This document shows, one piece after another, positions 9,156 to 37,447 of a DNA stretch of 57,076 nt (position 1 is the stretch's first letter; every line of letters starts with the position of its first letter). The notes under the pieces are model-generated. The model did not search any database, had not been told where the DNA came from, and saw only the letters and a list, made by a program, of their open reading frames with translations. A program made the translations under genes and the position numbers. Origin of the DNA: a virus (Duplodnaviria > Caudoviricetes); IMG/VR virus record IMGVR_UViG_3300037225_000975, positions 1 through 57,076 of that record; one strand, 5' to 3'.

Positions 9156-9157
9156 GG

Positions 9158-10519
9158 CTAGAATCCTTTCACGACGGCGTCGCCGTCATGCTCGCATAGT
9201 TCGTTGAACGCGCCGGATGACGCGTCCACCTGGTCGTCGTGGCATCCCTTCGTGGGGAAGGACTCCAGTTCTGAGAGATATTCCTCGTTCCAAGGCGCTC
9301 GCACCAGCTTCACGTTGCCAGCCAGGCATTGCGCCGCGTACGGTCTGGCGCGCGTCTCCTTGCTCGCCGTGACCGGCACAGCGTAGACGTCGCGTCCCGA
9401 GAGGCGGCTGATGAGGTAGTGCATCTCCGCCTTGCCCGCCTGGCCAGGATCTTGCTCGAGAGCGATCGGGCAGCGAGGTTCCTGGGCGCTGACGCGCTTG
9501 ATGTTCTCGAGCACCTTCCCGGGACCGTCGTGGAATCGACGCACGTCGACCACGTAATACGTGCCGTTCTTGACGACCATGCGCACGCCGACCGTCGCGT
9601 CAGGATCGAGATTCGAGTCCGATATCTCCGTGGCGGCGCGATCCCAGTAACGGATCTCGTTGTCGAACTCTTTCGGAACGGCGTCCACCACGTCGAACAT
9701 CTGCCTCTTGAAGTACGAGCCGGCTTGCTGCCTGGCGTTCCAATTACCGCCATACAGTCTCGAGCGCTCGTGCGCCGGCAGCGACTTGAGGTTGGCGACG
9801 TAGCCCGGATCTTTCGCCAGCAGCAGCGGATTGTCGTGGATGTTGGCGCTGATGAACGTCACCGATTTCGGCTCGAGGCCTCGATCGACCAGGGACTTCT
9901 TCGTGTCGCCCCAGACGATCTCGCCCTTCTCTCTGGCCATCCATCGCACCTTGGAATCTCGCTCGGGAATCGGGTAGCCCTTCTCCTCGTCGATCCACCA
10001 GCTGATGAACCGCCTCACCCAGCTGTCTGGATCCGGGTTGCAGGTGGCGCGCACGTACGGTCTCACGCCACACATCGAACGGTTTCGAGAGAGCATGTAG
10101 AAGAATTGCTGCTGCTCGAAATGGCACAGCTCGTCGAACGCGATGTAGCAGATCTGCGATCCCTGCCAGTCATACACGTTCTTGGCATGCTGCATGTGAG
10201 CGAACTTGATGCGGCTGCCCGAGACCGGATCAAACCATTCCAAGGCAGACTCTTTCGGAACCAGGCCAGCAGGTCCGTAAATCTCCCTAGACGTGTCCCA
10301 CAATCCGCCTGGTGCCGTGATCTGCGGATAGGTGCGACGAAAGATGACCGCCGAGAACCCCGGCACGTGCACGTTGCGAAGTCCCTCGAGCAGCTCGACG
10401 AACGTCTTGCCTCCCCCAGCTGCCCCGCCATAGATGATGATGTCCGCGTCGATGGAGCAGAACCGCGCCTGCGGTCCCTCCTGCGGAGCGATCATGATCT
10501 CTTCGGCGACTGCAGTCAT
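9158..10519 (-). CDS. terL: Terminase large subunit
   Basis: YGGAAGGGKT Walker A, IAFDE Walker B, ATCNP, WDRA and HDDQVDA nuclease motifs; start at ATGA overlap. Confidence 0.95.
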   Translation of the reverse strand: MTAVAEEIMIAPQEGPQARFCSIDADIIIYGGAAGGGKTFVELLEGLRNVHVPGFSAVIFRRTYPQITAPGGLWDTSREIYGPAGLVPKESALEWFDPVSGSRIKFAHMQHAKNVYDWQGSQICYIAFDELCHFEQQQFFYMLSRNRSMCGVRPYVRATCNPDPDSWVRRFISWWIDEEKGYPIPERDSKVRWMAREKGEIVWGDTKKSLVDRGLEPKSVTFISANIHDNPLLLAKDPGYVANLKSLPAHERSRLYGGNWNARQQAGSYFKRQMFDVVDAVPKEFDNEIRYWDRAATEISDSNLDPDATVGVRMVVKNGTYYVVDVRRFHDGPGKVLENIKRVSAQEPRCPIALEQDPGQAGKAEMHYLISRLSGRDVYAVPVTASKETRARPYAAQCLAGNVKLVRAPWNEEYLSELESFPTKGCHDDQVDASSGAFNELCEHDGDAVVKGF

Positions 10520-11009
10520 CGCGGCAGCTTCACCTGGGCTAGGTGGCGATTGGCGAGATCCTTGCGCATCCATTCTTGCGCTTCTGACTTGCTATGAGCG
10601 AGCTGGCAGTCTCCGGCGACGCGCCAAGCGCCGTCGTGACCTCTGATGAAGCCCACCCAACAGACCCGCAGTTTCGTCGTCGACTCTACCTGCCGCTGGT
10701 TGAAGCAGTCGAAGCAGTACTTCGCCATCGGCACCCGGCGCATCGGCTGCCCGCACTTCGCGCAGGTCTTGTCGACGAGAATCGCCGGAGCGTGCGAGTA
10801 CGTCACGATCCGATCTCCTGGATGGCGCGCTTACGGAGAAGCATAGCTGCGTCTCGCTCCACCATCGACATCTGGTCGTCGCGGCGTCTCGCTCGCTCCT
10901 GCCTCTCGCGAATGGCTCGCGCAGCGCTGAATCCTCTCGTCACGTCAGCCCAGAATCTCTCGCGCGACCGGCGGCAGCGCTCGTCGACGAAACCGACGAT
11001 GCTGCTCAT
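10516..11009 (-). CDS. Two small hypothetical proteins (10516-10806 with CxxC/CxxC; 10803-11009)
   Basis: 4-nt start/stop overlaps on both sides. Confidence 0.55.
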
Positions 11010-11812: not shown

Positions 11813-12421
11813 CTATCTCGGAATCGCTGGACCCCATCCGACCACCTCCGCCACCCTGCGAGCCACCGCCTCGATCGATTCCGAGGCGTCGCAGAAAACG
11901 ATCTCGTCCCCGCCCCGACCCACTTCCTGGTCTCGATACGCCTCCCTCACTTTCTTTCCGAGCGAGTCGAACCTATCCGGGACCTCCCCTCCCCTGGCCG
12001 CGATCCTGGCATCCAGCGTCGAGTCGTCAGCTTCCAGGAAGACGACCTGAGACCAGCTCGGCTGACGAGCCCATCCTTCCAGCACCTTGCAGATGTCCGC
12101 CCCCTCGGCCTGGCGCATCGCGATCCTGTAAGCCAGATTCGAGACCCCGCACCGGTCCATCACCACCCGCAGCCCGGTCAGACGCAGGTTCTCCGCTCGC
12201 CGCATGCAGTCCACGTCCACCGCCGCGAAGGCGAGAGCCATCGCCTCCTCTCCCAGCTCGAACGCCGGATCCTTCAGGGGACCCCGGAGCAGCTCGCCAA
12301 GCCGCGTCCCTCCAGGGCATCGCAGGTAGACGGCACCCCACCCGCGTTCCAGCTCCCTGGCCACGCTGGTCTTCCCGCACCCGTCCGGACCTTCCAAGCA
12401 GCAGATCAGCGGATCGGTCAT
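11813..12421 (-). CDS. tmk: Thymidylate-kinase-like dNMP kinase
   Basis: LEGPDGCGKTS P-loop, PGGT..GE..R, VVMDR. Confidence 0.85.
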   Translation of the reverse strand: MTDPLICCLEGPDGCGKTSVARELERGWGAVYLRCPGGTRLGELLRGPLKDPAFELGEEAMALAFAAVDVDCMRRAENLRLTGLRVVMDRCGVSNLAYRIAMRQAEGADICKVLEGWARQPSWSQVVFLEADDSTLDARIAARGGEVPDRFDSLGKKVREAYRDQEVGRGGDEIVFCDASESIEAVARRVAEVVGWGPAIPR

Positions 12422-13209
12422 GCCTTCCCTTTCGTGATCACCCAGCAGCAGTTGGACGCCGCTTCCGGGTATTTTGGAGCTAAGAAATTCGCCAGCACGT
12501 CCCAAGAATAGAACTCGTGCAGCTCGTCGACCAGCGCCCGCTCCGCCGCGCTCATGACTCGCTTCATCGCCTGCGAGGTCATGAAGGTGCCGTGCGCCGA
12601 CCTCACCGCCAGCCCGGCCGCCTCGATCATCTGCTTCAGCTCCACCCACCGATACTCGTGCACGTGGTTCTTCGCCATGTGCTTCTCGTTGTAGACCGGC
12701 GTGCTGAGAAGGAGCACTCCATCCTTCCTCAGCTTCTCGCGGAAAGCCTCGAGCAGCTTGCGACCGTCATCCTTCTTCATGTGCTCGATGACCTCGAAGT
12801 TGACGATCACGTCGAACTGCCCGTCGATCTCGTCGGCGCGGCTCGTGAAATCGAACTCCTGGAGCACCTCGACCCACTTGCACTTGAACGGCTTCACCCG
12901 GTTCATGTCCACGCCCACGTATCTCCCGGGAATGTGGCTCATGGACGGTGCCAGCACTCGCACCAGCGGCAGATCCTGGCCGCACCCGACGTCGAGGACG
13001 CTCATGCCCTTCTTGATGAACCTGGTGGCGAACCCCCATCGAAAGAAATGCGCCGCGTAATCTCGATGCACCTTGTCGCCGTACTGGGCGGCTCGAAGCT
13101 GCGTCTTGTCGAACTTGCGATCGATCACGTCCAGGCGGTGCCGCCTGGGAGGCGGCAGCTCGACCGGCTCGATCGGCGCTGGTTTCGGTTTCTTGATTTT
13201 GACGATCAT
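12418..13209 (-). CDS. Class I SAM-dependent methyltransferase
   Basis: VLDVGCG, YVGVD, FDVIVNFEVIEHM, GVLLLSTP, HVHEY. Confidence 0.85.
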   Translation of the reverse strand: MIVKIKKPKPAPIEPVELPPPRRHRLDVIDRKFDKTQLRAAQYGDKVHRDYAAHFFRWGFATRFIKKGMSVLDVGCGQDLPLVRVLAPSMSHIPGRYVGVDMNRVKPFKCKWVEVLQEFDFTSRADEIDGQFDVIVNFEVIEHMKKDDGRKLLEAFREKLRKDGVLLLSTPVYNEKHMAKNHVHEYRWVELKQMIEAAGLAVRSAHGTFMTSQAMKRVMSAAERALVDELHEFYSWDVLANFLAPKYPEAASNCCWVITKGKA

Positions 13210-13523
13210 GGCACTGCCTCGTAGGTTGCCGCGAAGATGTCTGGCTTGCACGGATATCGCTCGCCCTTGATGCCGGTGATGACCCAATCGCCCGGGCAGA
13301 CGATGTGTCCACCCTCAAGGGTGTCGATCCAGCCATGTTCCAAGAGGCGCCTGTTGCAGTTCACGCACAGCGCATGTCCCGAAGTGTTCGGGTCATTATA
13401 GCGCCTGACGACCTTGCCCTCTATGAGTACCCAATCTTTCCCCACCATGTCGTCAGGATGGTCTCCGTTCTTCCACCATCGCGTCGCTTCGACTATGACC
13501 GGTTTCTTGCGGAACTTGCTCAT
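13206..13523 (-). CDS. Conserved phage protein (KFRKKPV..EA / PGDWVI / YPCKPDIF..TY family)
   Basis: Recognisable family motifs. Confidence 0.75.
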   Translation of the reverse strand: MSKFRKKPVIVEATRWWKNGDHPDDMVGKDWVLIEGKVVRRYNDPNTSGHALCVNCNRRLLEHGWIDTLEGGHIVCPGDWVITGIKGERYPCKPDIFAATYEAVP

Positions 13524-19188: not shown

Positions 19189-19478
19189 GCGATCTCCATC
19201 ACCACGTCCGTCGACTTCATTCCCTCCATGTCCTTGTCGCTAAGGACGTCGACGATGATCTGCATGCGCCTCTTTCCCGCCACCTTGACGAGCTCTTCTG
19301 ATGAGAAATGCTTCGCCAAGAACTGCGCCAGCGCCAGAGCGCACTTCATCACTCCTTCGCGCTTGGCTCTCTCCTCGCACTCGACCTGGGCTCTCACCGA
19401 CGGGTCGAGCAGATTCACCTTCACGTTCGTCTCGCATCGAGCTGCGAAGCGGATGAGTTTCGCCTTTGTCCTCTTCAT
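19185..19478 (-). CDS. Hypothetical protein
   Basis: ATGA overlaps, GGAG SD. Confidence 0.5.
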   Translation of the reverse strand: MKRTKAKLIRFAARCETNVKVNLLDPSVRAQVECEERAKREGVMKCALALAQFLAKHFSSEELVKVAGKRRMQIIVDVLSDKDMEGMKSTDVVMEIA

Positions 19479-20452
19479 GGCGCCACTCCTCTCGCCCATA
19501 GAGGAGCATCCACGACTGCCAGAGGAGCCCCCAGTTTCCTAGCACAGGCGAGGAGCTTCTCGCACCACCAGCCATCATCTGGGTCTTTGACACGCTCCAA
19601 AACTGAATAGACTTCGCTGAAGTCTCCGTTCCTGAATTCATTCTCTCGATCACGCACCCACTCAGGCACTCCTTCCTCAAAAAAGGATTTTGCGCACGCA
19701 ACGGACGGTTCTGGTACCGCGACTGCTAGCTTCAGCATCGCCGGCAGAGCGACGATCTGTGTCGCTTTCTCATAGTTCGAGTCGTAAAGGTGCATGGAAC
19801 CAACGACATGGAGATACTTGCCCAGTCGAAGATCGAGAGCCGCCGCCATCAACGCCTGGATCTGGCAGAAGCAGTGCACGTCATATGGAGTTCCCAACCA
19901 TGCATCGTTCGACCGCATCGACGTCTGGAGATGCAGACGACCATCCCTGGCCAGAAACTGCAGCGTGAGCGTGCATGGCAAATCCTTCCACTCTCCACGC
20001 TCCGCCTCGACCACGTCACCGGAATCGAACAGGGCCACCACCGCTCGACGATCCTCTCGCTTCTTCAGCAAGACGTCCAAAGCGACGCGAAGCGAGGAGC
20101 GGCCTCCTCCCTTCGCCGCGATACCTGGATTGGAACGCATCCGCTTGCCGTAAGCTCCCATGGCCTCGCCATCGTTGCAAAAACCAGCGTACTTACTTGA
20201 ATAGGCGGACATCATCTCGCTGTCTGATTTTCCCATCAGATACCAGAGCAACTCTGCCGACGCATAACCGGCGGACCATTTCCTCCGATCATCGGCGATG
20301 GCACAATACTGAGGGTTCGACAAACCACCGGCCCAACCGACGATCTCTCGACAACCACCGTTGCGGCTCGGCGTCTCTGACCCTTCTGCGAGATCTGCGA
20401 GCAGATCCGACCACATGCAGTCGAGGTTTGAGTGAGTTGCGATCTGGCTCAT
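19475..20452 (-). CDS. Thymidylate synthase homologue, dCMP-type (dCMP hydroxymethylase/methylase-like)
   Basis: AELLWYL, GAYG.R, RRAV, PC(160), MRSNDAWLGTPYD(191), GSMHLY. Confidence 0.85.
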   Translation of the reverse strand: MSQIATHSNLDCMWSDLLADLAEGSETPSRNGGCREIVGWAGGLSNPQYCAIADDRRKWSAGYASAELLWYLMGKSDSEMMSAYSSKYAGFCNDGEAMGAYGKRMRSNPGIAAKGGGRSSLRVALDVLLKKREDRRAVVALFDSGDVVEAERGEWKDLPCTLTLQFLARDGRLHLQTSMRSNDAWLGTPYDVHCFCQIQALMAAALDLRLGKYLHVVGSMHLYDSNYEKATQIVALPAMLKLAVAVPEPSVACAKSFFEEGVPEWVRDRENEFRNGDFSEVYSVLERVKDPDDGWWCEKLLACARKLGAPLAVVDAPLWARGVAP

Positions 20453-20474
20453 GCGCGGTTCTCCTGGAATGTGA

Positions 20475-20960
20475 TCATGAGATGGTGACTCTGACAAGCT
20501 CGACACCGCACATCTTGGCGAGAGATCTGACGATCCACTCACCCCTGACTGTTAATGACGGATATTTCTCGACATCATAAACGACCCGCTTGATGCCGCA
20601 CGCGCAGATTACGTCGCGCATGCAGGCAGGACATGGCAGGTGAGTGCAATACAAGGACGCGTCTGGCAATGACACGCCTGCCAGCATCGCCTTGCGAGTG
20701 GCGTTCTTCTCGGCATGAACCACCAGGTCATACTTGGTTAGAAGATCTTCCATCTCGATCTTTCGGGTCCACCATTCCTCTCGATCTTCCACGCCATGAG
20801 GGAAACCATTGTAACCCAGGAACAGACCGCCGGTCACCGGATCGTGAATGCAGGCTCCAACCTTGCTGGACGGATCTTTCGATCGAGACTGGGCCCAGGC
20901 CGTGGTCGTGAGCATGATGCTCTCGTCCATGCGGAATTTGGATGTGAGTGTCTTGGTCAT
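20475..20960 (-). CDS. dCMP deaminase
   Basis: SKDPSSKVGA, GYNGFP, HAEKNA, PCPAC. Confidence 0.9.
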   Translation of the reverse strand: MTKTLTSKFRMDESIMLTTTAWAQSRSKDPSSKVGACIHDPVTGGLFLGYNGFPHGVEDREEWWTRKIEMEDLLTKYDLVVHAEKNATRKAMLAGVSLPDASLYCTHLPCPACMRDVICACGIKRVVYDVEKYPSLTVRGEWIVRSLAKMCGVELVRVTIS

Positions 20961-22027
20961 GATAGGAAGTCGCAGATGGTGGATCCGATCGGGGAAGCAA
21001 GTTTCCGATTCGATCGTATCGCCGAGGCGGCCACGCCACCGATCCATCGTGCCGCTGGAGGGAGAACGGCCTTGGCGATCTGGGCGTACTTGTCATTGAC
21101 GCCACCAACGAACTCGTAGTCATGCGGATAACCGCACATCACCTGCTGCTCTTTCACCGTTAGCGGTCTATGGTGTGTCGGGTGGAAGAACTGAGGACCG
21201 CCGGTGATCGTGGGCGACAGCTCGTCCATCTGCAATCTGATGTTGAGAAAGCCAGGCCTGCCAGCCACCATGCCATGCGCGTTCCTCTCGTATTCCTTCC
21301 CAGCGTTCAACCGCTCGAAGGTCTCGTTGAGAGACGTTTCTCCAGGTTTCATGGCTTTGAGGATTCTCAGGTAGTTATCGCTCGGCACGGCGCCTTCCTG
21401 GGACGAACCTGCCGGGATCGAGGCCAAGGCTTCGCGCACCGTGACGATACCTCCTCCAGGAGGTCCCTCGACATCAACCTTCACCTTTGATGCCAGGAAG
21501 AAGAACCGCTTGCGACGCTGCGGCAACCCGCAATCTGCGCCGTTGAACGTGATCAACCAGGCATGATATCCGAGTTTGTTCACCTGCTCGACTCTCTGCT
21601 GGACGAACGCCGCGCCGTTCTTCATGGCGGCGGCGACCGACTCCCAAAGAAAGATTTTGGGGCGTAACTTCTCCAAAAGAGCGAAGAGGCGAACGGTGCA
21701 ATCGGTCCGACCGTCTTTCGACCACCTGGCTTCGTTCCGGTCTTCCTTGTCTCTCACCTTCACGCCGGCTTGAGACCATGACGCGCATGGCGGATTGCCG
21801 TAGAGCAGGTCGAACTGGTCTCTCGCGTAATCGGTAACCGGTCCCCAGTTGCTTTCCGGATAGAGGACGCCCAAGTCGGGCATGTTTTTCTTGGCAGTCT
21901 CCACGCCGAACGGTCCCTCCTCGAGATGGGCGAGCACCTTGAAGTGCTCCCTGATCCCGAGCGTGAACCCGCCAGCGTAGATGTGGCAACCGATGGCGGT
22001 CGGTTTTGGTTTTCTGGTGATGAGCAT
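20957..22027 (-). CDS. C5-cytosine DNA methyltransferase homologue with altered cofactor motifs (candidate carboxymethyltransferase)
   Basis: Motif IV GNPPC(81), VI E(129)SV, VIII PQRRKRFF, IX RPLTVKE...GYP, X YAQIAK(319)AV; motif I is HIYAGGF. Confidence 0.85.
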   Translation of the reverse strand: MLITRKPKPTAIGCHIYAGGFTLGIREHFKVLAHLEEGPFGVETAKKNMPDLGVLYPESNWGPVTDYARDQFDLLYGNPPCASWSQAGVKVRDKEDRNEARWSKDGRTDCTVRLFALLEKLRPKIFLWESVAAAMKNGAAFVQQRVEQVNKLGYHAWLITFNGADCGLPQRRKRFFFLASKVKVDVEGPPGGGIVTVREALASIPAGSSQEGAVPSDNYLRILKAMKPGETSLNETFERLNAGKEYERNAHGMVAGRPGFLNIRLQMDELSPTITGGPQFFHPTHHRPLTVKEQQVMCGYPHDYEFVGGVNDKYAQIAKAVLPPAARWIGGVAASAIRSNRKLASPIGSTICDFLS

Positions 22028-22028
22028 A

Positions 22029-22547
22029 TCAGTAGCCGAACCAGTCCTTGAGCAGGCCGGAGATGTCCGGTGGCGAGTAGTCAGCTCCCTTGCCCTTGTC
22101 TCCCTGATGAGAGGCGGCGGCCTTGTGCTTGGTCATGTTCGACCTGTGCACCTCCCAAAAAGCCGCGTCGAGAGGCACGTCAAGCTGGGTGGCCGTTCCC
22201 GCGGTCACGTAGAGCAGATCGGCCAGACCGTCGAGCAGCTCTACCTCGTCCAGCTCGTGCATCGCCATCACCACCTCGCCGAGCTCCTCGATCATGAGCT
22301 CTGCCCGGAGATATCTCTGATCCTTGGTGACCTTGAACACCTCCTTCAGATGAGAACTGATGTCCTTCAGATGAGATGCTGCTTTGCAGAGATCGAGTCG
22401 ATGGTTCTTGTCGAACGTCATCAACCTTGCTGGCGGCGGAGCACCAACTTTTTTCTGAAATTCAAGGACGGCCTGTTCGACCCTTCCTCGTTGGGGGATT
22501 CCATTTCTGTTGTTGGCTTGCTCTCTCGTTTCTTCTCCGTCTTCCAT
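22029..22547 (-). CDS. MazG-like all-alpha NTP pyrophosphohydrolase
   Basis: EELGE...DGLADLLYV...EVHRSNMTK; AGGAG SD at 22547. Confidence 0.85.
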   Translation of the reverse strand: MEDGEETREQANNRNGIPQRGRVEQAVLEFQKKVGAPPPARLMTFDKNHRLDLCKAASHLKDISSHLKEVFKVTKDQRYLRAELMIEELGEVVMAMHELDEVELLDGLADLLYVTAGTATQLDVPLDAAFWEVHRSNMTKHKAAASHQGDKGKGADYSPPDISGLLKDWFGY

Positions 22548-24622
22548 GACTGGTCTCCTGATTTTGCGCGCATCCAAAGATCTTGGATTCGCTGGTTGAT
22601 GATGTATTCCACGACCGGTCTGCCGACCTTGCTCGATTTCTTCCTGGGTGTCAAGATGCCGAACAGGGTGAGGTCGTCGAACTTGCGATAGATGGTTGCC
22701 GAGTTGACCTTCATCGCCTCCACTATGGCGCCTCGTTCTGCAGTTCCGCCAAGCTTCATCATCGCCTCGATGATGTCGATGTTGAACCCGTGAGCGGTGT
22801 CCATCGCCACTCTCTCGATGATCCCGTAGACCTCGGCATCCACTGACTTCTTGTCGAGAACGTGCGCGATGGAGAGACCGAGCTTCATGAGCTGCTTGGC
22901 CAGGCGAGTGCCATTCTCCGCGATAGGCCTGTAAACGACCACGTCGTCACGATACTTCTCTCGTTCCACCTGGGCTCTCATGGCTGCCACGAGTTGCACG
23001 AGAGCGGTGAGCCGTTGAGCATAGATTGGAGGCAGATCAGGCAACGTGTCAGGGTCGAGACGCCTGATTAGAAACCTGGAGACCATGAGCTTGGTCTCGG
23101 TCTCCATCTTCTTCTCGATGCCGACCATGCGAATAGCAGACTCGATGATGCTGTCAGCTTGCGCTCCCTCGAGCTTCGATATTTGCAACTTCAAGAACCG
23201 CTCGCCGAGCAGAGCTTGTCTGTTACCATGGATCGCCGATGTCACGCCGGCCAGGAGAGAGAAGTGGCAGTCCAGATACTCCCTGGTGATGCCGTTGCCG
23301 AACGTCTTCTGCACGTAGCCATCGTAGGCGCCGCGAAGAGTCGAGAACACCTCCTCCTGGGCGACGACCGGCATCGAGAGAATCTCGGTGAAATCCTTCG
23401 CCACCAGGGTCTTTCCCTTCAGACGAGGAATCAAGCTTGGATCCTTGGCGGATCCTGCGTCGCCTCTCCATCCAGAGATCAGGCAGTGAGGAGTCACCGA
23501 CGACCTGAACACGGCTCTTTTCGTTTCTGATAGCGCGCTCAGCAGCATCGTCTTGCCTGCTCCGGGAGGTCCGACCAGGTACATCCACACCGGATCACCA
23601 GGAATCTCGTTGGAGCTGATCACCGCCAGCGAGCACATGAGAGCGAGTTCGAGATCGTCGGTCATCACCACGTGCTTCTTGAACGTCTCGACGACTTCCT
23701 GAAACGTGGCCGGTTCGAGCGGCTCTCCGTTGGCATCTATCTCGCGCGGATCCTCCTCGTCGGTTGTTCTCTTGTCCTCGTCATGGTGTCTCGGTTTGTC
23801 GGAGAGCAATCCCATGATCGACTTGAACGTCATCGACGGACCGGCGCTCTTCATGCCGTCGACGATGTGATCTCTGATGTCCCAACCGGTCGGGCGCCCG
23901 ACAGGCCATGAGACATGCTTGACAGCTCTCGCCACTCCTGCGAGATTTCTGATGGCTCGGTCAGTGCCCATGTCGCCGGCGTTGTCGGCATCATAGCACG
24001 TGATGACTTGCTTGTTGCGGAACAGGTCGGCCCAGTGGCTCTTGAACACGGCGGCTCCAGGCACCGCCACCACCACGTCATCATCGACCTCCATCTCCTT
24101 CAGCAACCACATCATCGCGATAGCATCCCATTCGCCCTCGCACAGCCACACCCTGGTTCCCTCAGGAGCCTCCGCGAGCTTGTCTCCCATCCACAGCTGC
24201 ACCTTGCAACCGGCCGTGCTCATCATCATCTTGGTCTCTGGATCGTAACGTCTCACGTCATGGATCACTCCCCTGGGACTGGCGCACGGCACGAGCCAGT
24301 GGAAACCGTCATATCCCAGACCGGCTTCCTTCAAGACGCTGATCGGTAGGTGGCGGTGCTGAGAGAGCTCTGTCCACTGCTTCTTCGTCGCTCGGTCGGA
24401 ATTCATCTTGCAGATGGCGGTTAGGAACGAGATATGGTTCCCGCTTGCTCCGCACACCTTGCAATCCCAGACCGTCTTGTCGACATCGCAAAAGAAGTGC
24501 CTCTCCTTCCCGCACAGAGGACAGTCACCAACCCAGTTTCCAGAGCCGTTGGGAGCTCTCATGGCCGCTCCCCAGAAGTTGAGGGTGCGGATGATGTCCG
24601 GAGATTTCTCGGCTTCGCTCAC
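22421..24622 (-). CDS. Primase (Zn finger + TOPRIM) fused to AAA+ (MCM-like) ATPase and winged helix
   Basis: CPLC/CKVC; EGEWD and DAD; GPPGAGKT, KDF, ERF; C-terminal HTH; GTGA overlap with the polymerase gene. Confidence 0.8.
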   Translation of the reverse strand: MSEAEKSPDIIRTLNFWGAAMRAPNGSGNWVGDCPLCGKERHFFCDVDKTVWDCKVCGASGNHISFLTAICKMNSDRATKKQWTELSQHRHLPISVLKEAGLGYDGFHWLVPCASPRGVIHDVRRYDPETKMMMSTAGCKVQLWMGDKLAEAPEGTRVWLCEGEWDAIAMMWLLKEMEVDDDVVVAVPGAAVFKSHWADLFRNKQVITCYDADNAGDMGTDRAIRNLAGVARAVKHVSWPVGRPTGWDIRDHIVDGMKSAGPSMTFKSIMGLLSDKPRHHDEDKRTTDEEDPREIDANGEPLEPATFQEVVETFKKHVVMTDDLELALMCSLAVISSNEIPGDPVWMYLVGPPGAGKTMLLSALSETKRAVFRSSVTPHCLISGWRGDAGSAKDPSLIPRLKGKTLVAKDFTEILSMPVVAQEEVFSTLRGAYDGYVQKTFGNGITREYLDCHFSLLAGVTSAIHGNRQALLGERFLKLQISKLEGAQADSIIESAIRMVGIEKKMETETKLMVSRFLIRRLDPDTLPDLPPIYAQRLTALVQLVAAMRAQVEREKYRDDVVVYRPIAENGTRLAKQLMKLGLSIAHVLDKKSVDAEVYGIIERVAMDTAHGFNIDIIEAMMKLGGTAERGAIVEAMKVNSATIYRKFDDLTLFGILTPRKKSSKVGRPVVEYIINQRIQDLWMRAKSGDQSWKTEKKRESKPTTEMESPNEEGSNRPSLNFRKKLVLRRQQG

Positions 24623-26724
24623 GCCGTCACCGTCACGTCGGTCGTTTGCGACCATCTCTCAGTCGCTATCTTGAAACCAACCGGGAACGGGATCGGCGAA
24701 CCGAGCTTCATCGCGTCATCTCCCATGATCCTCACCGTATCCTGCTTGAGTTCTTTGCAGTCGATTTCCTTGTCGACCTCGATGATCAGCTCATCGTGGA
24801 TCTGGAGCAAGATCCTAGCCTGATCACGCCACTTGGTTATATAGCACTCGTCGAGACCGATCATCGCGTTCTTCATGACCTCTGCTGCTGTTCCCTGGAC
24901 GAGGTAATTGGTGGCGCGATATTCATAGCCCGGATCGATGCTGTAAACTCTGCCGAATGGATTGACAACGACTCCTTGATGTTTTGCGAGACCGACACTC
25001 TCGCCCATGAACTTGCGCACGCCGGGTAGTCTTTCATCATAATCGGAGATGAATTGTTTGGCTTCTTCCAAAGAAGTGCCAGTCATCTGGGCGATCTTTC
25101 CCGGCCCGCCACCATAGATCTTGCAAAACTGAAGATTTTTCGCGCGCTTGCGACCGATCTTGTATCGTTTCAGATTAGAGAGTTCTTCTTTAGAAAGAGA
25201 CGACTGGTCTTTCTTTGCAGAGATTTTCGCCAGTTTCTTGTCGTACGTGTGTCCCCAGATCAGGTCAGCGACGTTCTGATGGGCGTCTCCTCCAGCTACC
25301 AACGCGTTGATGAGCTCTTTGTCCTTCGCGAGCAAGGCCAGAATCCACACCTCGATTTGCGAGTAATCAGGCACGTAAAATAACGTGCCAGGTCGAGGAA
25401 CGAACACCTCTCTGGGACGATAGGGAACGTCGACTTTCTTCTTGCCTGATTCGTCGCTCGCCACGTTCTGAAGGTTAGGTCTCTCGGCGCTCATGCGCGC
25501 GGTCCTGGTGCCGGCTTGCTTGTAGTTTGGGTGAATGATCTTGCAACCGGTATCTAGTTCGAGCACGGACAGTGCCGCGTATTGCTCCGTGAAGTGCAGC
25601 ATCGTCGAGGCGGCTGAGTGGTGCAGAATGTGCCAGGCCAAAGGGTCGCCCATCACGAGCTTTTCAGAGCCATCAGCCTGATGCTCTCGCTTGACGCCAA
25701 TGTGCTCCAGGAACTCACCATCGCATTTCGGGTTCTGGCCAGTGTCCTGGCACACCAGGCAACCTGACCCCTTGCAATGCTGGCAGGCCACCGGCGCGTT
25801 GCCCTTCTTCTTGTTCTTGGAGTACCTGATCGGCGCGTGCTCTCGCACGCCGAAAAACTCCATCGTCATCTGCTTCGGCGAGGCGACGTTCAGGTCCTTG
25901 CCGCCAGCGAGATCGATGCCTTTCTTCGCTCTGTTGGCGATGGATCGATAGAATCCGGTCAGCTCGTCGTTTCTCTTCGAGTCGATGGCGACGCCGAGGC
26001 ACTCCATGCGCTCCAAGGTGGCCATGAGAGCCATCTCTCGGTCGTAAACTTCCTGGGCATCAGGATGGTTCTTGAAATGCTCGATGTGAGCTGCTCTAAG
26101 AGTCGCCACTCTCACGGCATCCGTGACTCCATACTTCTTCAGTACCTCGTGATCGGCGAGCCAGTAGTCAGCCTTGAGCTCCTCGGCTATGGCCCAACCT
26201 CTCTTCTTAGCCAATCTCCTGGCCGAGATGGTGGACTTCTGCAGATCGGTCTCGTCATCGATCGGAATGTCGAGGTACTTCTTGCACAGCGGCTTGAGAG
26301 CGTACGTTATCTCGTCCGAGGAGATGACCGAGGTACCGATGATGGTGCACAGCCACTCGCCGACCAGCGGCAACCCGACGGCCCTGGTCATGTGGCGATC
26401 GAATGGCGCATTGTGAGCGACTTTCGCGATCTTCTCGTTGACAAGGATCGGCTCCAAGGCCTTTCTCACGTCATCGGTCATGCTCACTTGCCTGGTCTGA
26501 GCACAAACCGGCAATCTAGCCCAAGCTGTTCTCCCATCGGGGTCGCAGAAAGTGAAGAAGAACGGTCGAGCTGGCCAGGTCTGTCTGTCGACGCCACGCT
26601 TTCCCCAGGGATCGAGCCCCGTGGTTTCCGTGTCGTACCCGAGCCAGTCACCTCGCAGAAGATCCAGGCCTTCATGACCTGGCACTCCAACCCACTCCCG
26701 TCTCCTCAGAATGGTTAGGGGCAT
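24619..26724 (-). CDS. polA: Family A DNA polymerase with 3'-5' exonuclease
   Basis: DTETTG, HNAPFD, Y...DA; PNLQN, DYSQIE, R..AK...F...YG, IHDEL. Confidence 0.95.
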   Translation of the reverse strand: MPLTILRRREWVGVPGHEGLDLLRGDWLGYDTETTGLDPWGKRGVDRQTWPARPFFFTFCDPDGRTAWARLPVCAQTRQVSMTDDVRKALEPILVNEKIAKVAHNAPFDRHMTRAVGLPLVGEWLCTIIGTSVISSDEITYALKPLCKKYLDIPIDDETDLQKSTISARRLAKKRGWAIAEELKADYWLADHEVLKKYGVTDAVRVATLRAAHIEHFKNHPDAQEVYDREMALMATLERMECLGVAIDSKRNDELTGFYRSIANRAKKGIDLAGGKDLNVASPKQMTMEFFGVREHAPIRYSKNKKKGNAPVACQHCKGSGCLVCQDTGQNPKCDGEFLEHIGVKREHQADGSEKLVMGDPLAWHILHHSAASTMLHFTEQYAALSVLELDTGCKIIHPNYKQAGTRTARMSAERPNLQNVASDESGKKKVDVPYRPREVFVPRPGTLFYVPDYSQIEVWILALLAKDKELINALVAGGDAHQNVADLIWGHTYDKKLAKISAKKDQSSLSKEELSNLKRYKIGRKRAKNLQFCKIYGGGPGKIAQMTGTSLEEAKQFISDYDERLPGVRKFMGESVGLAKHQGVVVNPFGRVYSIDPGYEYRATNYLVQGTAAEVMKNAMIGLDECYITKWRDQARILLQIHDELIIEVDKEIDCKELKQDTVRIMGDDAMKLGSPIPFPVGFKIATERWSQTTDVTVTA

Positions 26725-28437: not shown

Positions 28438-29301
28438 TTACTTCTTCTTGGCGAGGATGAGACGCTTCGCCGCTGGAGTCTCTTTCGGCTTGACGCCGAT
28501 CATGGTTTGGCGATTGTCGAAAGCGAGCTGGAGGTTCTTGGCAGACTGCTTCTCATCGTCGCCCATCGGGATCTCCTCGACCCGCTCACCATCAGGAGTG
28601 CGGAAGTTCTCCACGCACCTGCACCCGGCGACCAGGGTGTCGCTGCCTTTGATACGGAGATAGCGAAGTCCATCAGCATAATCGTAGAACCCGATGACGT
28701 CCACGATACCTTCGATCTCGTTCAGGGCGCGAGCCGCCATGGTCGGCATGCGACGCTCGATCTTCTCGCCATCTGGAAGCTCGACTTCCTTCTCCGTATC
28801 ATGGCTGAGAAACACCACGCCGCAACCGAGCCGTAGAGCCCTGGTCACGACCGAGCGGAAGAGGTCTCGAATCTCCTTCCAGGTCGCGCCGAAGTCTTTC
28901 TCTTCGCTCGGGTGGTTGATCATCTTGTCCTTGCAGACCTTGTTCCAGGCCAGGTCGTACACCAGGTCGACCGTGTCGATGACCAGGGTGTCGCAGTACT
29001 TCTCGCCACCGGCAAACTTGGCCTCGAGTTGATCCATCAGCGCGCTGATGTCCTGATAGCTGGTCACGTTGCTTGACCGAACCCGCAAAGCTTTCGTGCC
29101 CGGTTCGGTGGAGATGAAATAGGGATTCGGAAGTTGGGCGCACAGCGTCGTCTTGCCGATCTTCTTGCGACCATAGATCAGCATCGAGTAATCGCTGAAT
29201 CGTGTCGGAGGCACGCTCGCTTTCGTTGGAAGCTGCATGGTCGGTCGTTTCGGGGAGGACGCGATGGCGCTCTTTCCCCCGATCTTCTTGATGAGCGCCA
29301 T
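28438..29301 (-). CDS. Sak4-like AAA (AAA_24) ATPase
   Basis: LIYGRKKIGKTT, TLVIDT, FLSH. Confidence 0.85.
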   Translation of the reverse strand: MALIKKIGGKSAIASSPKRPTMQLPTKASVPPTRFSDYSMLIYGRKKIGKTTLCAQLPNPYFISTEPGTKALRVRSSNVTSYQDISALMDQLEAKFAGGEKYCDTLVIDTVDLVYDLAWNKVCKDKMINHPSEEKDFGATWKEIRDLFRSVVTRALRLGCGVVFLSHDTEKEVELPDGEKIERRMPTMAARALNEIEGIVDVIGFYDYADGLRYLRIKGSDTLVAGCRCVENFRTPDGERVEEIPMGDDEKQSAKNLQLAFDNRQTMIGVKPKETPAAKRLILAKKK

Positions 29302-29430
29302 TGTCGATCTCCTGGCTGGTGACGCCAAGACCCGAGTCGCTCCTGGGCGCTCGGGTCTGGATGATTGGCAACCGGTTTCGATCCTATCCGGTCGCGAGCT
29401 CGTGTTCTACCAATTTCACGCGTTTCAGAA

Positions 29431-30396
29431 TCACAGTTCTGGATGATGTCTTTTCTTAAGCCGGAAGCTAGCTTCATCGCCCCTGCTGCAGACGGGAAGG
29501 AAGTGGCAGCCGCCGTATTGGTCGCACCTCGACCCGTTCCAGCCAAGATCTCGATCTTTCTGAGTGGTCGTCTTCCACCAGGCATAGAACTCCTCGACCA
29601 GCTTCTGAAGCCTGAACTTGTGGGTCTCCTTCTCATGCCGATCCAGGTGAATCTCGAGTCTTGTGAAGTAGTGATCCTCGTCCTTCATCGCCTCGTCGCC
29701 ACAGCGCTTCGCGTACTCGACCAGGCTCTCGTCCTGGCCCTGCTTCAATCCTGGACGGCGACAGATGTCGTAGATGATCTCGCCAGGCTCCTCGCCCATC
29801 ATCTCGGTGAGAGCCGTCGAGTAGGCGCCGATCTGCGTGTCAAGAGGCAGCGTGTCGCTGATGTTCTTTGACACCTGAGCCTTGAACTTCGTCTCGACCA
29901 GGTGAGGCGTCTTCTTGCCTTGGAACACCCGGTCCATCTTGCCGACATAGGGAACCGAGGCACCGTCGGGCATGGTCAGGTCCAGCTTGAACTTCTCCTC
30001 GATCTTGAGCCAGTCACGTTTCAGATCGCCAACCCCCCATTTCGACCAGTAGGCTGGCAGGATCTTGCCCAGCACCGCGACACTCTCGATCTTGATGTCC
30101 GTCGCCGTCGACGTCAACTCTCGATCTTCTGCCGAGAACTCTTTCTGGGCGTGCGCTAGGTCATCCTGGACGCCGCGAATGAGGCCGTTCACCGTTTTCC
30201 GGTTCGACACCAACGCGTGAGCGATGGCAGAGTGACCTAGCGCCCCAAAGATCAGCGGTTTCGAAGCGTGCGTGCTGTCCAAGCCTCGCACGATGCCAAG
30301 CCTGGCCATCTCCCGGCATTCGAGCCAGATGGACAGCATTGACTGGGATGTTCCGTCCACTCTGGGATCGTAGGTGGAGGATTTTGGAGCTTTCAT
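29431..30396 (-). CDS. PD-(D/E)XK nuclease (RecB/Cas4-like)
   Basis: SQS......C, G...H, E..F, GKMD, ETK, Q...Y, C.....C....C. Confidence 0.85.
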   Translation of the reverse strand: MKAPKSSTYDPRVDGTSQSMLSIWLECREMARLGIVRGLDSTHASKPLIFGALGHSAIAHALVSNRKTVNGLIRGVQDDLAHAQKEFSAEDRELTSTATDIKIESVAVLGKILPAYWSKWGVGDLKRDWLKIEEKFKLDLTMPDGASVPYVGKMDRVFQGKKTPHLVETKFKAQVSKNISDTLPLDTQIGAYSTALTEMMGEEPGEIIYDICRRPGLKQGQDESLVEYAKRCGDEAMKDEDHYFTRLEIHLDRHEKETHKFRLQKLVEEFYAWWKTTTQKDRDLGWNGSRCDQYGGCHFLPVCSRGDEASFRLKKRHHPEL

Positions 30397-31022
30397 AGAT
30401 GTCCTTTCACGAACAGGCCGATCCCGACCGCGTCCATCTCGTGCGACTTGTCGGTCTTGGGTCGCCATTTGGGAAGCTTCGCGCGGATGCGTGGTTCCAA
30501 GATGTCTTTCGGCATATTACCCTTCCACTCCATGATCGGCACTGGACAGAAGATGCTGGATTGGTTGTTGCAGAGCTTGCCCATGACGGCGCCGAACACG
30601 GTCGTGAGCTTCACCAGGTCACCATCCCTGGCTGCCGCGAGTCCCTTGCCCGCCTCCATGAACTGGGGCAGCTCGGCGTACACGACCATGACGGTCGACC
30701 TCCTGGCGATATCACCGAGTCGATCCGCGATCTCGGCGGCGTGCCACCACCATGGTCGATTCTTCGTCGGTGACGAGATCGAACCGGAATCGATGGGTGG
30801 CACGAGCTCGTCATGCTGCATCCTGCTCCAGAGAGCCCAGCCAGTTCCGCCGAGCCCCGGGTCGACGGTGAGGAAGTTGCCGAGGTTCCCGAAAAGCTTG
30901 TACGTGTTGCCTTTCTCGTTCTCGCCGAGCGCGCCGACGCCGACAAGTTCTTTTCGAGATCCTACGAGAGCGAACCCCAAGGTCGACGTCATCTTGACCA
31001 GTTTCTTCTTGAGCAACCTCAT
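30393..31022 (-). CDS. RuvC-like Holliday junction resolvase
   Basis: VDPGLGGTGWA, AELP, WKG...K, HEMDAVGIG. Confidence 0.8.
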   Translation of the reverse strand: MRLLKKKLVKMTSTLGFALVGSRKELVGVGALGENEKGNTYKLFGNLGNFLTVDPGLGGTGWALWSRMQHDELVPPIDSGSISSPTKNRPWWWHAAEIADRLGDIARRSTVMVVYAELPQFMEAGKGLAAARDGDLVKLTTVFGAVMGKLCNNQSSIFCPVPIMEWKGNMPKDILEPRIRAKLPKWRPKTDKSHEMDAVGIGLFVKGHL

Positions 31023-32365
31023 CCGAGCCTCCTGTTGGTTTGAATCTTGGTCATGAGCCACTGGGCTGACTCATTCTTCGCAGCAAGAGACTCGAGGACA
31101 TCCTCGTCGACAGTGCGCTCCGTCACCAGGTCGACCACGAGGATCGGAGCTTTCTTCAAAGGATGCTCGAGTCGGTCTTCCGACTGGCGTCTTCCTTCAA
31201 ATGAGTACGGGCTGCTGAAATAGATCTCAGTGTCAGCAGCAGAAAGATCGAGACCGTACTTGCCGCACGCCACCTGGCAGAGGAAGACGCGTCGCTTGCC
31301 TTCATGGAATAGGCTCCTCCGCCGCCTTCGTTCTGGCACCTCAACCTCGCCGGAAACCCACGTGGCGCTAATGTTTGCCGCCTTCAGCTCCCGCCACACC
31401 CGAGCTAGCTCGAGGTTGAAGGAGAACCAGACCACGACCTGCTCGTTCTTGAGTTGAGTCAAAAGCAAGTCGACCAGGGCCGCGTACTTCCAGCACGGTA
31501 GCTCTCTCCCCGGCACGTGGCCTCCGGCTATCCTGCGGATCCAGGTACCGACCACGAGCGAGTTCTTCGCCTCGAGACCTGGAATCTCCCACCTCTCGAC
31601 TGACTGCCGGTAGATCCGCAAGGCGTCACCTTCCAGGGATCCGGTCAGCTTCTCTCGGATCTTGATCGAGCCGAGACCTGCTTCCTGGCGAGTGAGGATG
31701 TGACCATCGACATGGAACTGCTCCTTGATCTTCTTGGCCGATCCGGGCCTGGCCATGATGTCAAACCCGGCCTTGAAAAAGTGACGCTGCTGCCATGTCC
31801 AGTAATTGCTGCAGCCCATCCACTCGCCACCAGAGGCGAAAGCCATCTGGGTCCACACTTCGAGCAGTGATTCAGGATTAGTGAGACCGGTGAGGATGGC
31901 GCGAATCGGCGCGGTGCTCAGCTCCCTGACGGCGACCTTCGTGATCTGAGCTCTCGGATTTTTGACGGCCGTGCTCTCATCCAGCAAGATGGCGTGCCAG
32001 TTTCCTAACCAGGCAGATGACGTGTGAAGCAGCGTCTCGTACTGGATCAGATACCAGCCGGCCTCGCCACCACCATGCTTCTCCATGATCTTTTCGCGCT
32101 TCTTCTTCTCGCCTTTGATCATGGTCCAGCGGAGTGATTCCTTCTCCAACTCCTCCTGCCAGGAGACGAGCGGCGTCGACGGCGCCACCACCAGAACTTG
32201 CTCGCATCCTGGCTCGATTCCGGCAACCTTGAGACGATGCTGACACCATCGGATCGACGTGATCGTCTTGCCGAGCCGCATCTCCATGATGAACGCTGCC
32301 CAGTCCTGGTCAGCGAACCGATCGAAGGCGACCTGCTGGTGCGGCATCAGCTCGCGACGCTTCAC
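31019..32365 (-). CDS. SNF2-like SF2 helicase
   Basis: MEMRLGKT, LDEST, LTG, GLDL, QSEDR. Confidence 0.9.
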   Translation of the reverse strand: MKRRELMPHQQVAFDRFADQDWAAFIMEMRLGKTITSIRWCQHRLKVAGIEPGCEQVLVVAPSTPLVSWQEELEKESLRWTMIKGEKKKREKIMEKHGGGEAGWYLIQYETLLHTSSAWLGNWHAILLDESTAVKNPRAQITKVAVRELSTAPIRAILTGLTNPESLLEVWTQMAFASGGEWMGCSNYWTWQQRHFFKAGFDIMARPGSAKKIKEQFHVDGHILTRQEAGLGSIKIREKLTGSLEGDALRIYRQSVERWEIPGLEAKNSLVVGTWIRRIAGGHVPGRELPCWKYAALVDLLLTQLKNEQVVVWFSFNLELARVWRELKAANISATWVSGEVEVPERRRRRSLFHEGKRRVFLCQVACGKYGLDLSAADTEIYFSSPYSFEGRRQSEDRLEHPLKKAPILVVDLVTERTVDEDVLESLAAKNESAQWLMTKIQTNRRLG

Positions 32366-36030: not shown

Positions 36031-36926
36031 ATGCGTCTCGCCATCGAGCTCAAGCTCGCCAACCCGACCACCTGTCAGGCCCATGTCGGCATCCTCGAAG
36101 ACACGATGGTCTTTCCGGTGATCGTCGCCTTCACGAAGGACAAGACCTCCAAGTGGCACTTCGAGTCCATCGGCATCGACATCGGCAAGGGGAATCCCCA
36201 CCCCGACGTGCTGCTGGAGATCGCTGCCCAAGTCTTCAAGGAGCTCGCCAAGCACGATCCCCTCACCTTGACTCCTCGAGAACTGCTGTTCCGATCCGGC
36301 AAGTCGCTCAGCCGCCAAGTGTGCTTTGACCCGATCCAGAAGAAGCATGTCATGACCCGTACCCTGGAGGGTCGCGAGGCAGTGTGGTGGGCCGTGACCG
36401 GCAAGGGCAAGCACCTTCATGCCGATGCGAGCGTCGACAATGCCGACGGCGAGAAGCAGGCCAAGATCTTCCTCAAGGCCCAGGTGGCCGAGCTGATGGA
36501 GGCCCACCCGAACGAGATCAAGAATCTCGGCGAATGGTTTGCTGGCGGTTGCAAGGTCGAGCGCGAGGATGCCGGCGCCTCGGACTACGTCAAGCTGGAC
36601 GACATCGAGCCGCTGCCGATCACCGCGACCAAGGCCGAGAAGGCGTGAAGCTAGTCATTCGGAAGAAGGGGGAGGCGGCGAGAGCCGTCTCCCTCGAATC
36701 CTTGGCAACGACCGAGCTCGAGTCGTCAGGTCAGGCCGGGATCAGTCCCAGGGAGTTTCATCGACGTCATCCCGGTCAAGATCTGATCCATCACGTGAAA
36801 GCTTTGGCTGCCGCCGCGAAGAAGCTCAGAGCCAAAGCATCCTGGTCGCCCATCAGAGGCGATCAGGGTGCCGCCCAGGAAGCTCGATACCACATGCACG
36901 GCATCGAGCCGGCGAAGGAGGACTGA
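36031..36926 (+). CDS. Two early hypothetical proteins (36031-36648, 36645-36926)
   Basis: AGGAG SD; GTGA overlap. Confidence 0.6.
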
Positions 36927-37447
36927 TGCGAGACTTCAAGTTCGACGGATCGCGGTTCGCCGGGGTCACGACCGCTGACTTCAATCATGGAATAGGACCC
37001 AGGCGCCCGATGATCATCGGCCAGGCACCGGCTCGATCTGGAGGACCTCCCATCACCGGTCGATGCGGCGAGAAGCTCGCCGACCTGCTCGGTATCTCGA
37101 TGGAGAAGTTCCTGGAGACGTTCGTTCGAGGCAACCTGATCCAGGAGTGGCCTGGCAAGTCAGGTCGAGGCGATGAGTTCCCTCGATCGTTGGGAATCAT
37201 GGCGGCGTTTCAGATCATGAGCAGTGGCGCCTTGAAAGATCGCCGGATCGTTCTCCTGGGTCGCGAGGTGGCGAGATGTTTTCGCATCACGCCGGACAAA
37301 GCTGACTACCTGGACAAGGTGGATCTGGTTGGCGGTCGAGCTCTTCTGCTTCCTCACCCATCAGGCGTCTCGAGATGGTGGAATTGTTCTCGACGATCCA
37401 CCGCTGCAAAGAGAGCTCTCCGGGCATTCCTGGCTGAGTACTTGTGA
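36926..37447 (+). CDS. Uracil-DNA glycosylase superfamily protein
   Basis: IIGQAP, NL, IVLLG..VA, LPHPSG..RWWN; AGGAGG SD. Confidence 0.8.
   Translation: MRDFKFDGSRFAGVTTADFNHGIGPRRPMIIGQAPARSGGPPITGRCGEKLADLLGISMEKFLETFVRGNLIQEWPGKSGRGDEFPRSLGIMAAFQIMSSGALKDRRIVLLGREVARCFRITPDKADYLDKVDLVGGRALLLPHPSGVSRWWNCSRRSTAAKRALRAFLAEYL

Follow-up and report, generated by a model that had tools for sequence, protein, structure and literature searches.

Which group does a phage enzyme transfer to cytosine when the near-invariant motif-X asparagine of the C5-methyltransferase fold has been replaced by lysine? The question is raised by an open reading frame (ORF) on the minus strand of the stretch of DNA analysed here (the window), 57,076 nucleotides of the IMG/VR virus record IMGVR_UViG_3300037225_000975 (Caudoviricetes). 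The ORF begins with an ATG, encodes 356 amino acids and is a homologue of the C5-cytosine DNA methyltransferases; a preliminary description of the locus had taken it for a candidate cytosine carboxymethyltransferase, writing a carboxymethyl or another non-methyl group at C5. The explanation that we lean towards, tentatively and with more doubt than confidence, is that the protein is a C5 alkyltransferase accessory to a pathway that replaces cytosine by 5-hydroxymethylcytosine (5hmC), with 5-methylcytosine (5mC) as its default product.

The motif-X lysine and its clade

The predicted protein matches PF00145 over residues 17–330 with an E-value of 1.2e-27 (97.7 bits; cut-off 22), and scores below the cut-off of TIGR00675, the NCBIfam dcm superfamily model (66.7 bits; cut-off 100.65). 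The Cys nucleophile and the Glu of motif VI are present, and motif VIII, Q170-R-R172-K-R174 (QRRKR), has the Q-x-R-x-R form of C5-methyltransferases; the GNAV Asn and the F-x-G-x-G of motif I are absent. The residues on which the preliminary description was built are those found in the translation and in the DNA: PPC81 and E129 are intact, motif X reads YAQIAK319AV with an AAG codon for the lysine, motif I contains HIYAGGF and ESV stands for ENV (Table 1). In pairwise phmmer comparisons with solved structures, K319 pairs with the motif-X GNAV Asn of plant DNMT1 chains; in a family profile built from 87 relatives, its column falls on the HaeIII Asn. The proposed alignment of K319 with the near-invariant Asn therefore holds against DNMT1 and HaeIII alike. 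The same profile column also falls on the motif-X Arg of SpCmoX (8YF3), and on these alignments and the published SpCmoX structure Lys319 would be expected to face the transferred group.

Across 87 aligned clade members N78, P79, P80, C81, E129, R172 and R174 are invariant, and Q170 forms with R172 and R174 a trio that is invariant or nearly so; conservation extends to the glycine loop and to Glu36 of motif II. The conserved Cys, Glu and Arg residues, together with the motifs for S-adenosylmethionine (AdoMet or SAM), argue for a working, Cys-dependent C5 transferase with an AdoMet-type cofactor.

A word-indexed search returned 157 relatives at E <= 0.001, with 120 among the matches listed, and an exhaustive search of cluster representatives returned 312 clusters (50% identity) at E <= 1e-30, with 150 among the matches listed. 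Alignment to the family profile gave 248 rows, the query and 247 homologues, 213 of which carry NPPC in motif IV. The motif-X column of these 213 rows holds Arg in 88, Lys in 81, Gln in 38, Cys in two, Ala in one, Phe in one and a gap in two; Asn occurs in none, and is the residue in 26 of the 35 rows that do not carry NPPC. Further changes accompany this substitution. Ala follows PPC in 197/213 NPPC rows, in contrast to the Gln of canonical enzymes; for motif VI, the commonest clade forms read E-S-V and the canonical rows E-N-V; and the commonest forms of motif I are YIFAGGF (68/213) and HIYAGGF (39/213). The signature of the clade thus has motif I as (H/Y)I(Y/F)AGGF, motif IV as NPPCA and motif VI as ESV, with Lys, Arg or Gln for the motif-X Asn.

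On this alignment the motif-X Lys is a clade trait and neither a chance nor a private change. The loss of Asn is clade-wide; the lysine itself is found in 81/213 members and interchanges with Arg and Gln. In a FastTree phylogeny of 207 clade members and eight canonical outgroup rows, Lys, Arg and Gln switch approximately 30 times by parsimony and Asn is never regained. Given this frequent switching and the 38 members with Gln, a salt bridge is not required; the position needs a long hydrogen-bonding side chain, and not strictly a positive charge.

Among 50,697 phage records, queries with K-type and R-type enzymes found cultured relatives of at most 27.6% identity among the matches listed, and no cultured relative with established DNA chemistry was found in that set. 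A search of cellular genomes (one per species, 185,579 prokaryote species) gave two relatives, both on short contigs of metagenome-assembled genomes, which point to no particular host. The clade therefore appears to be restricted to phages and essentially absent from cellular genomes.

Carboxy-SAM supply and the comparison with CmoX

The preliminary description mentioned a natural phage enzyme with Arg at this position. Such an enzyme is real and is SpCmoX of Synechococcus phage S-B43 (PDB 8YF3), which makes 5-carboxymethylcytosine at GC sites from carboxy-SAM (Cx-SAM); its R350 stands for N304 of HhaI and contacts the carboxymethyl group (PMC12783734, here and below in the parts of the paper available). 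S-B43 encodes its own, faster CmoA, the Cx-SAM synthase, and an amide ligase, CmoY, while E. coli CmoA can also feed SpCmoX in vivo. The survey reported with it comprised 5,615 sequences with SPPC and R350, on whose contigs there were 4,257 CmoA genes. The engineered carboxymethyltransferase M.MpeI N374K, also mentioned there, agrees with PMC12015181 and PMC13288465; the E. coli Dcm N436K variant could not be confirmed, as the only two papers found to contain 'N436K' deal with other proteins.

The protein studied here resembles SpCmoX in being a phage-encoded member of PF00145 with a catalytic PPC Cys, in having a long polar or cationic residue for the motif-X Asn (K319 versus R350), and in having lost both residues that flank PPC in canonical enzymes, Gly on one side and Gln on the other (NPPCA here, SPPCS in 8YF3, canonical GPPCQ). 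It differs in its Lys, NPPC and ESV, where 8YF3 has Arg, SPPC and ENV. With the clade profile, 8YF3 scores lower (108 bits) than HaeIII (121 bits), and the pairwise E-value of the protein to 8YF3 is only 2.7e-7; the clade is therefore not a close relative of CmoX. Of the features that define CmoX, SPPC and Arg350 are replaced here by NPPC and Lys (with Arg in 88 of the 213 clade members), and neither a CmoA on the same contig nor a neighbouring CmoY, the two genes that stand next to CmoX in S-B43, was found in the window. With M.HaeIII (1DCT), M.HhaI and DNMT1 it shares PF00145, the motif order I, IV, VI, VIII, IX, X and the catalytic Cys, Glu and Arg residues; by comparison with these canonical enzymes, the first Phe and Gly are missing from motif I, NPPCA stands for GPPCQ, ESV for ENV and Lys for the GNAV Asn. 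The engineered enzymes M.MpeI N374K, M.MedI N377K and M.CviPI Y205K/R (PMC12015181, PMC13288465) have Lys at the equivalent position, as judged by alignment on the motif-X Asn. These carry single changes in an otherwise canonical enzyme and still methylate with SAM, whereas here Lys is one of three interchangeable residues and is accompanied by three further active-site changes.

We searched for a source of Cx-SAM with TIGR00740, which finds the CmoA of S-B43 at E 2.5e-34. There was no match in the 57-kb window, although the record is estimated by CheckV to be 68% complete and the phage itself could still have a CmoA; the earlier statement that no CmoA-like synthase is recognisable is correct within these bounds. 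The same model had no match in 49 clade-encoding viral records, including the 18 that are at least 90% complete, and with near-complete relatives lacking CmoA the clade seemingly does not travel with this gene. A search for CmoY-type ligases with PF00733, which finds the S-B43 gene between CmoA and CmoX, gave no match in the window; other ligase families were not searched.

These results bear on the proposal of a dedicated C5 carboxymethyltransferase, in which Lys319 would form a salt bridge with the carboxylate of Cx-SAM, host CmoA would supply the cofactor and the product would be 5-carboxymethylcytosine. The position of the residue and the changes shared with SpCmoX stand in its favour: K319 aligns with the R350/N304 position, the flanking Gly and Gln of PPC are lost in the clade and SpCmoX alike, and Lys or Arg is found in 169/213 clade members. 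Saturation mutagenesis of M.MpeI N374 found cationic side chains to be best for Cx-SAM use, with methyltransferase activity maintained, and the Lys and Arg mutants of M.CviPI acquire Cx-SAM activity (available text of PMC13288465). The feeding of SpCmoX by E. coli CmoA is also consistent with a host-supplied cofactor. What does not fit is the missing supply, given 4,257 CmoA genes for 5,615 CmoX sequences on one side and none in 49 records on the other, with no CmoY-like ligase in the window; the 38 members with Gln and the frequent switching between the three residues; and a clade profile that is no better on 8YF3 than on HaeIII. Further, Asn-to-Lys enzymes retain SAM methylation: with SAM, M.MedI-N377K gave > 99% protection and M.MpeI-N374K 28% (PMC12015181), and the M.CviPI Lys and Arg mutants matched the wild type in methylation at the SAM concentration of the assay (PMC13288465). 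In E. coli SAM is reported to exceed Cx-SAM 400-fold in abundance (PMC13288465; PMC12015181; both as far as available), so that an enzyme fed by its host would mostly make 5mC. Taken with the gene context described below, we regard a dedicated carboxymethyltransferase as distinctly unlikely.

A predicted cytosine-hydroxymethylation operon

Four genes, contiguous or overlapping, lie in a row on the minus strand; the methyltransferase gene is the second of them, preceded by a MazG-like gene and followed by those for a deoxycytidylate (dCMP) deaminase and a thymidylate-synthase homologue (Table 1). The closest solved relative of the last of these is the CMP 5-hydroxymethylase MilA (E 1.4e-24, compared with 1.3e-16 for the best thymidylate synthase), and the protein has Asp at both of the MilA Asp positions. 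These are equivalent to N177 and L143 of E. coli ThyA, numbering that we transferred through the MilA alignment; according to the available text of PMC13326640, Asp at the N177 position confers dCMP specificity and an acidic residue at the L143 position goes with hydroxymethyl and not methyl products. The Asp that 5-hydroxy-dCMP synthases swap for Asn is also retained, and at the N177, L143 and D169 positions the protein carries the residues of the dCMP-hydroxymethylase signature (PMC13326640, PMC8670742). As PMC8670742 reports in the parts available, a thymidylate synthase with Asp177, a PRA-PH protein and a dCMP deaminase co-occur specifically on contigs with modified cytosine. From the thymidylate-synthase homologue, taken with the genes of the MazG-like, deaminase and kinase-like proteins, replacement of deoxycytidine (dC) by 5-hydroxymethyl-dC is predicted for this phage.

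Table 1. Coordinates of the C5-methyltransferase homologue, its altered motifs and the associated genes in the window
Feature	Position	Strand	Evidence and remarks
C5-methyltransferase homologue	20957..22027	-	Member of the phage-only NPPC / ESV / K-R-Q clade; PF00145
Motif I variant HIYAGGF, residues 15–21	21965..21985	-	Glycine loop intact; other residues in place of the first Phe and the first Gly
Motif IV, N78-P79-P80-C81, with the catalytic Cys	21785..21796	-	Asn for the usual Gly; Ala for the usual Gln after Cys
Motif VI, E129-S130-V131	21635..21643	-	ESV in place of ENV
K319 codon AAG, in place of the motif-X Asn	21071..21073	-	Motif X is YAQIAKAV; alignment
MazG-like / PRA-PH nucleotide pyrophosphohydrolase	22029..22577	-	PF01503, E 1.2e-13; stop one base before the methyltransferase ATG
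dCMP deaminase	20475..21047	-	PF00383, E 8.6e-16; shares 91 bases with the methyltransferase gene at the 3' end of the latter
Thymidylate-synthase homologue with dCMP-hydroxymethylase signature	19475..20542	-	PF00303, E 1.9e-21
Class-I SAM methyltransferase (Methyltransf_23), stand-alone	12418..13287	-	PF13489, E 1.2e-18; homologue of the domain fused to clade members elsewhere
Thymidylate-kinase-like deoxynucleoside monophosphate (dNMP) kinase	11813..12421	-	PF02223, E 1.2e-13; ATG overlaps the class-I methyltransferase TGA (ATGA)

The association is not peculiar to the window. In 62 of 80 sources (79 viral loci and the window) a thymidylate-synthase homologue is encoded within 10 kb of the clade gene; the first Asp, in the substrate-specificity column, is present in 61 of these 62 proteins, the other having a gap, and the second position is Asp or Glu in all 55 sequences printed. 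Over whole records, PF00303 is matched in 48/50 clade records, including all 18 that are near-complete, and in 0/50 control records with canonical C5-methyltransferases (GPPCQ/ENV/GNAV), 28 of them near-complete. The control set consists of 50 of 80 loci, kept with a preference for longer contigs (all but one at least 28 kb), and these are mostly proviruses, so ancestry shared within a lytic lineage may inflate the contrast of 48/50 with 0/50. The window trio of thymidylate synthase with Asp177, PRA-PH and dCMP deaminase is that of the T4-type 5hmC pathway and of the metavirome modules in PMC8670742; here it surrounds the methyltransferase gene, and the module descriptions in the available text of that paper include no C5-methyltransferase homologue. 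The window adds a dNMP-kinase-like gene to the trio. The clade also differs from canonical C5-methyltransferases in being confined to phages with a dCMP-specific thymidylate-synthase homologue.

For the carboxymethyl proposal this context is unfavourable: the operon predicts 5hmC in place of cytosine in phage DNA, and the dCMP-hydroxymethylase-like partner should remove much of the unsubstituted cytosine that carboxymethylation needs, whereas the CmoX phage S-B43, which has no PF00303 match, lacks that context.

In the explanation we prefer, the protein would be a catalytically complete member of its clade, and the clade an accessory of a pre-replicative cytosine-replacement pathway, with whose genes the methyltransferase gene is here translated from one operon. 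Covalent C5 catalysis would be of the ordinary kind, with Cys81 attacking C6, Glu129 protonating N3, and Arg172 and Arg174 holding the base. The substrate would be a flipped cytosine with a free C5, in host DNA or at phage DNA positions that escaped replacement, and the group transferred would be whichever is bound to the sulfonium of the AdoMet-type cofactor, SAM alone giving 5mC. Lys319, Asn78 and Ser130 would lend unusual polarity to the pocket in which the transferred group sits, and Cx-SAM may be acceptable, if supplied by the host, as a side or alternative activity and not a dedicated one. We favour this explanation because Lys variants keep SAM methylation and no source of Cx-SAM was found encoded in the window.

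Several points weigh against this explanation. Efficient conversion of dC to 5-hydroxymethyl-dC would leave little free C5, and a methylase that mops up the remainder would be of little benefit to the phage and fits poorly with the 48/50 linkage. Four near-invariant positions have changed together (Asn has taken the place of Gly in front of PPC and Ala that of Gln behind it, motif VI reads ESV for ENV, and the motif-X Asn has given way to Lys, Arg or Gln), which looks like a changed cofactor or substrate and not like plain methylation. The natural precedent, SpCmoX with Arg at this position, accepts Cx-SAM only and its R350N variant is dead (PMC12783734). The thymidylate-synthase linkage itself could be inheritance in one large lytic lineage; and the activity, cofactor and substrate given here for this protein are predictions from sequence.

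The phage-restricted distribution of the clade also allows a different role, in which the protein would mark or trap unmodified, host-type cytosine DNA as a shut-off or discrimination factor to which the 5hmC DNA of the phage is immune. In keeping with this, the clade occurs in phages and almost never in cellular genomes or proviruses, by comparison with canonical viral C5-methyltransferases, which are mostly in proviruses; and it travels with an enzyme that would make phage DNA a non-substrate. The argument is purely inferential, though, and the conserved cofactor and catalytic motifs fit an enzyme that turns over equally well, so that we consider such a role improbable.

Fusions, partner enzymes and wider meaning

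Partner domains are a recurrent feature of the clade. A class-I Methyltransf_23 domain is fused in the long members P0130 and P0161 and in the intein-bearing P0155, P0211 and P0221; a uracil-DNA glycosylase (UDG)-superfamily domain is clearly fused in P0234, and other long members have extended stretches without a Pfam match. At the locus level, fusion to the class-I domain is seen in three C5 ORFs, and a class-I methyltransferase gene lies nearby in 20/80 sources. A protein family of approximately 350 amino acids without a Pfam match adjoins the C5 enzyme or is fused to it in 40/80 sources (for example L016:11411-12469, with fused forms in L012, L021, L065 and L071), and the enzyme is always of the Arg type. 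The AlphaFold model of this protein (predicted local distance difference test score, pLDDT, 84) matches T4 beta-glucosyltransferase 1BGT best (E 5.9e-6; template-modelling scores, TM, 0.58/0.61), so that related loci add a T4-beta-glucosyltransferase-like protein to the hydroxymethylation genes. Some loci with this family also have genes for an NAD-dependent epimerase/dehydratase and a UDP-glucose dehydrogenase-like protein nearby.

Inteins of the LAGLIDADG type split the C5-methyltransferase domain of P0155, P0211 and P0221, the same proteins that bear a C-terminal class-I methyltransferase domain, and the profile match resumes directly past the intein, at approximately position 71–97 of the Pfam model, near motif IV. 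The C-terminal extensions of the longer K-type members contain no informative Pfam domain.

The stand-alone class-I methyltransferase of the window is translationally coupled to the thymidylate-kinase-like gene through the ATGA overlap. Its model (pLDDT 89) has fold matches of a generic class-I methyltransferase kind, among which CmoM ranks second; the fold E-values are flat and these ranks carry little meaning. Its family is found with a thymidylate-synthase homologue in 40/46 records (22/22 near-complete) and with the C5 clade in 11/46 at E <= 1e-20; in the reverse direction, 9/50 C5-clade records have a member. The family thus follows the thymidylate-synthase module and not the C5 enzyme, which makes it an accessory of the nucleotide module instead of a dedicated partner of the C5 enzyme, and it might act on a modified nucleotide or base. 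We also considered whether it could be a non-orthologous Cx-SAM synthase. This was unsupported, as TIGR00740 had no match to it at E <= 0.1 and no CmoA was among the best 50 fold matches; a class-I methyltransferase that is no look-alike of CmoA and keeps to the thymidylate-synthase module is a further point against dedicated carboxymethylation.

The fusions and the near-obligate linkage also suggest an alternative in which the clade acts on 5hmC already in phage DNA. The scaffold would flip 5hmC, Cys81 would add to C6 and the polar pocket (Asn78, Ser130 and Lys, Arg or Gln at 319) would hold the CH2OH group; this group would then be either substituted by way of an exocyclic methylene intermediate or alkylated on its hydroxyl, to give an undescribed hypermodified cytosine. 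C5-methyltransferases can swap the hydroxyl of 5hmC for thiols in vitro. The tie to a dCMP-hydroxymethylase-like enzyme (48/50 versus 0/50) and the adjacency in the operon are what such a substrate would lead one to expect, as are the fusion or adjacency of clade members to a protein modelled closest to T4 beta-glucosyltransferase, an enzyme of 5hmC DNA, the fusion of other members to a class-I methyltransferase tied to the thymidylate-synthase module (40/46 records), and concerted changes that all lie around C5 and the transferred group. Against this, the AdoMet-binding motifs are conserved and would be needless for a cofactor-free exchange, alkylation of the hydroxyl would not need an invariant Cys, and we know of no natural enzyme of this kind. 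Moreover, the presence of 5hmC in phage DNA is a prediction from genes, and co-expression of independent DNA-modifying enzymes may be all that the fusions reflect. We consider action on 5hmC unlikely, and retain it because the linkage, the glucosyltransferase-type fusions and the four concerted changes fit a mop-up methylase poorly.

A pathway of methyltransferase, TET and glycosyltransferase was also looked for; there was no Tet_JBP match in 50 records or the window, a weak negative for which there was no positive control.

More broadly, the NPPC / ESV / K-R-Q clade may be a new functional class on the C5-methyltransferase scaffold, with a non-methyl product, in uncultivated lytic phages with 5-hydroxymethyl-dC; the group would be either a polar one that an analogue of SAM supplies or one derived from the existing 5-hydroxymethyl, and some phages would pass the product on to fused glycosyl- or methyltransferases. 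This joint claim is possible but, in our estimation, rather unlikely. If true, a large group of phages would carry a hypermodified cytosine not yet described. By titles and abstracts, the literature searched holds no natural Lys- or Gln-type enzyme and no C5-methyltransferase clade tied to a dCMP hydroxymethylase, the supplements of the CmoX paper not being covered; the filter of the CmoX survey, SPPC with R350 (PMC12783734, as available), would have left out the NPPC clade.

Natural carboxymethylcytosine was shown only in 2025, via one Arg-type family that travels with its own cofactor synthase. Here a second large phage-only clade (312 clusters) alters the same active-site position and travels instead with hydroxymethylase-like, glucosyltransferase-like and class-I methyltransferase proteins. 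Should it transfer a non-methyl group or act on 5hmC, it would constitute a new branch of phage DNA hypermodification and provide new tools to epigenetic sequencing chemistry, a field that already employs Asn-to-Lys enzymes. Should it make only 5mC, then Lys, Arg or Gln at the motif-X position would not by itself predict carboxymethylation, which matters for the mining of enzymes from sequence.

Minor observations concern the rest of the window. The MazG-like ORF, which starts with a TTG at 22577, has 157 bases (22421-22577) in common with the end of the primase-helicase ORF, and its Pfam match begins at residue 86; its true start is therefore uncertain and probably further downstream. A 302-amino-acid ORF at 36539-37447 (+) has a weak UDG-superfamily match (E 1.6e-4) that is under the cut-off. 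Scanning 31 window ORFs against Pfam revealed no integrase. The phage backbone in the window (7482-10573, 22421-26724 and 28438-32365, all on the minus strand) comprises a portal-like DUF4055 protein, a large terminase, a Toprim/AAA primase-helicase, a family-A DNA polymerase with exonuclease, an AAA_24 protein, a PD-(D/E)XK nuclease and an SNF2 helicase.

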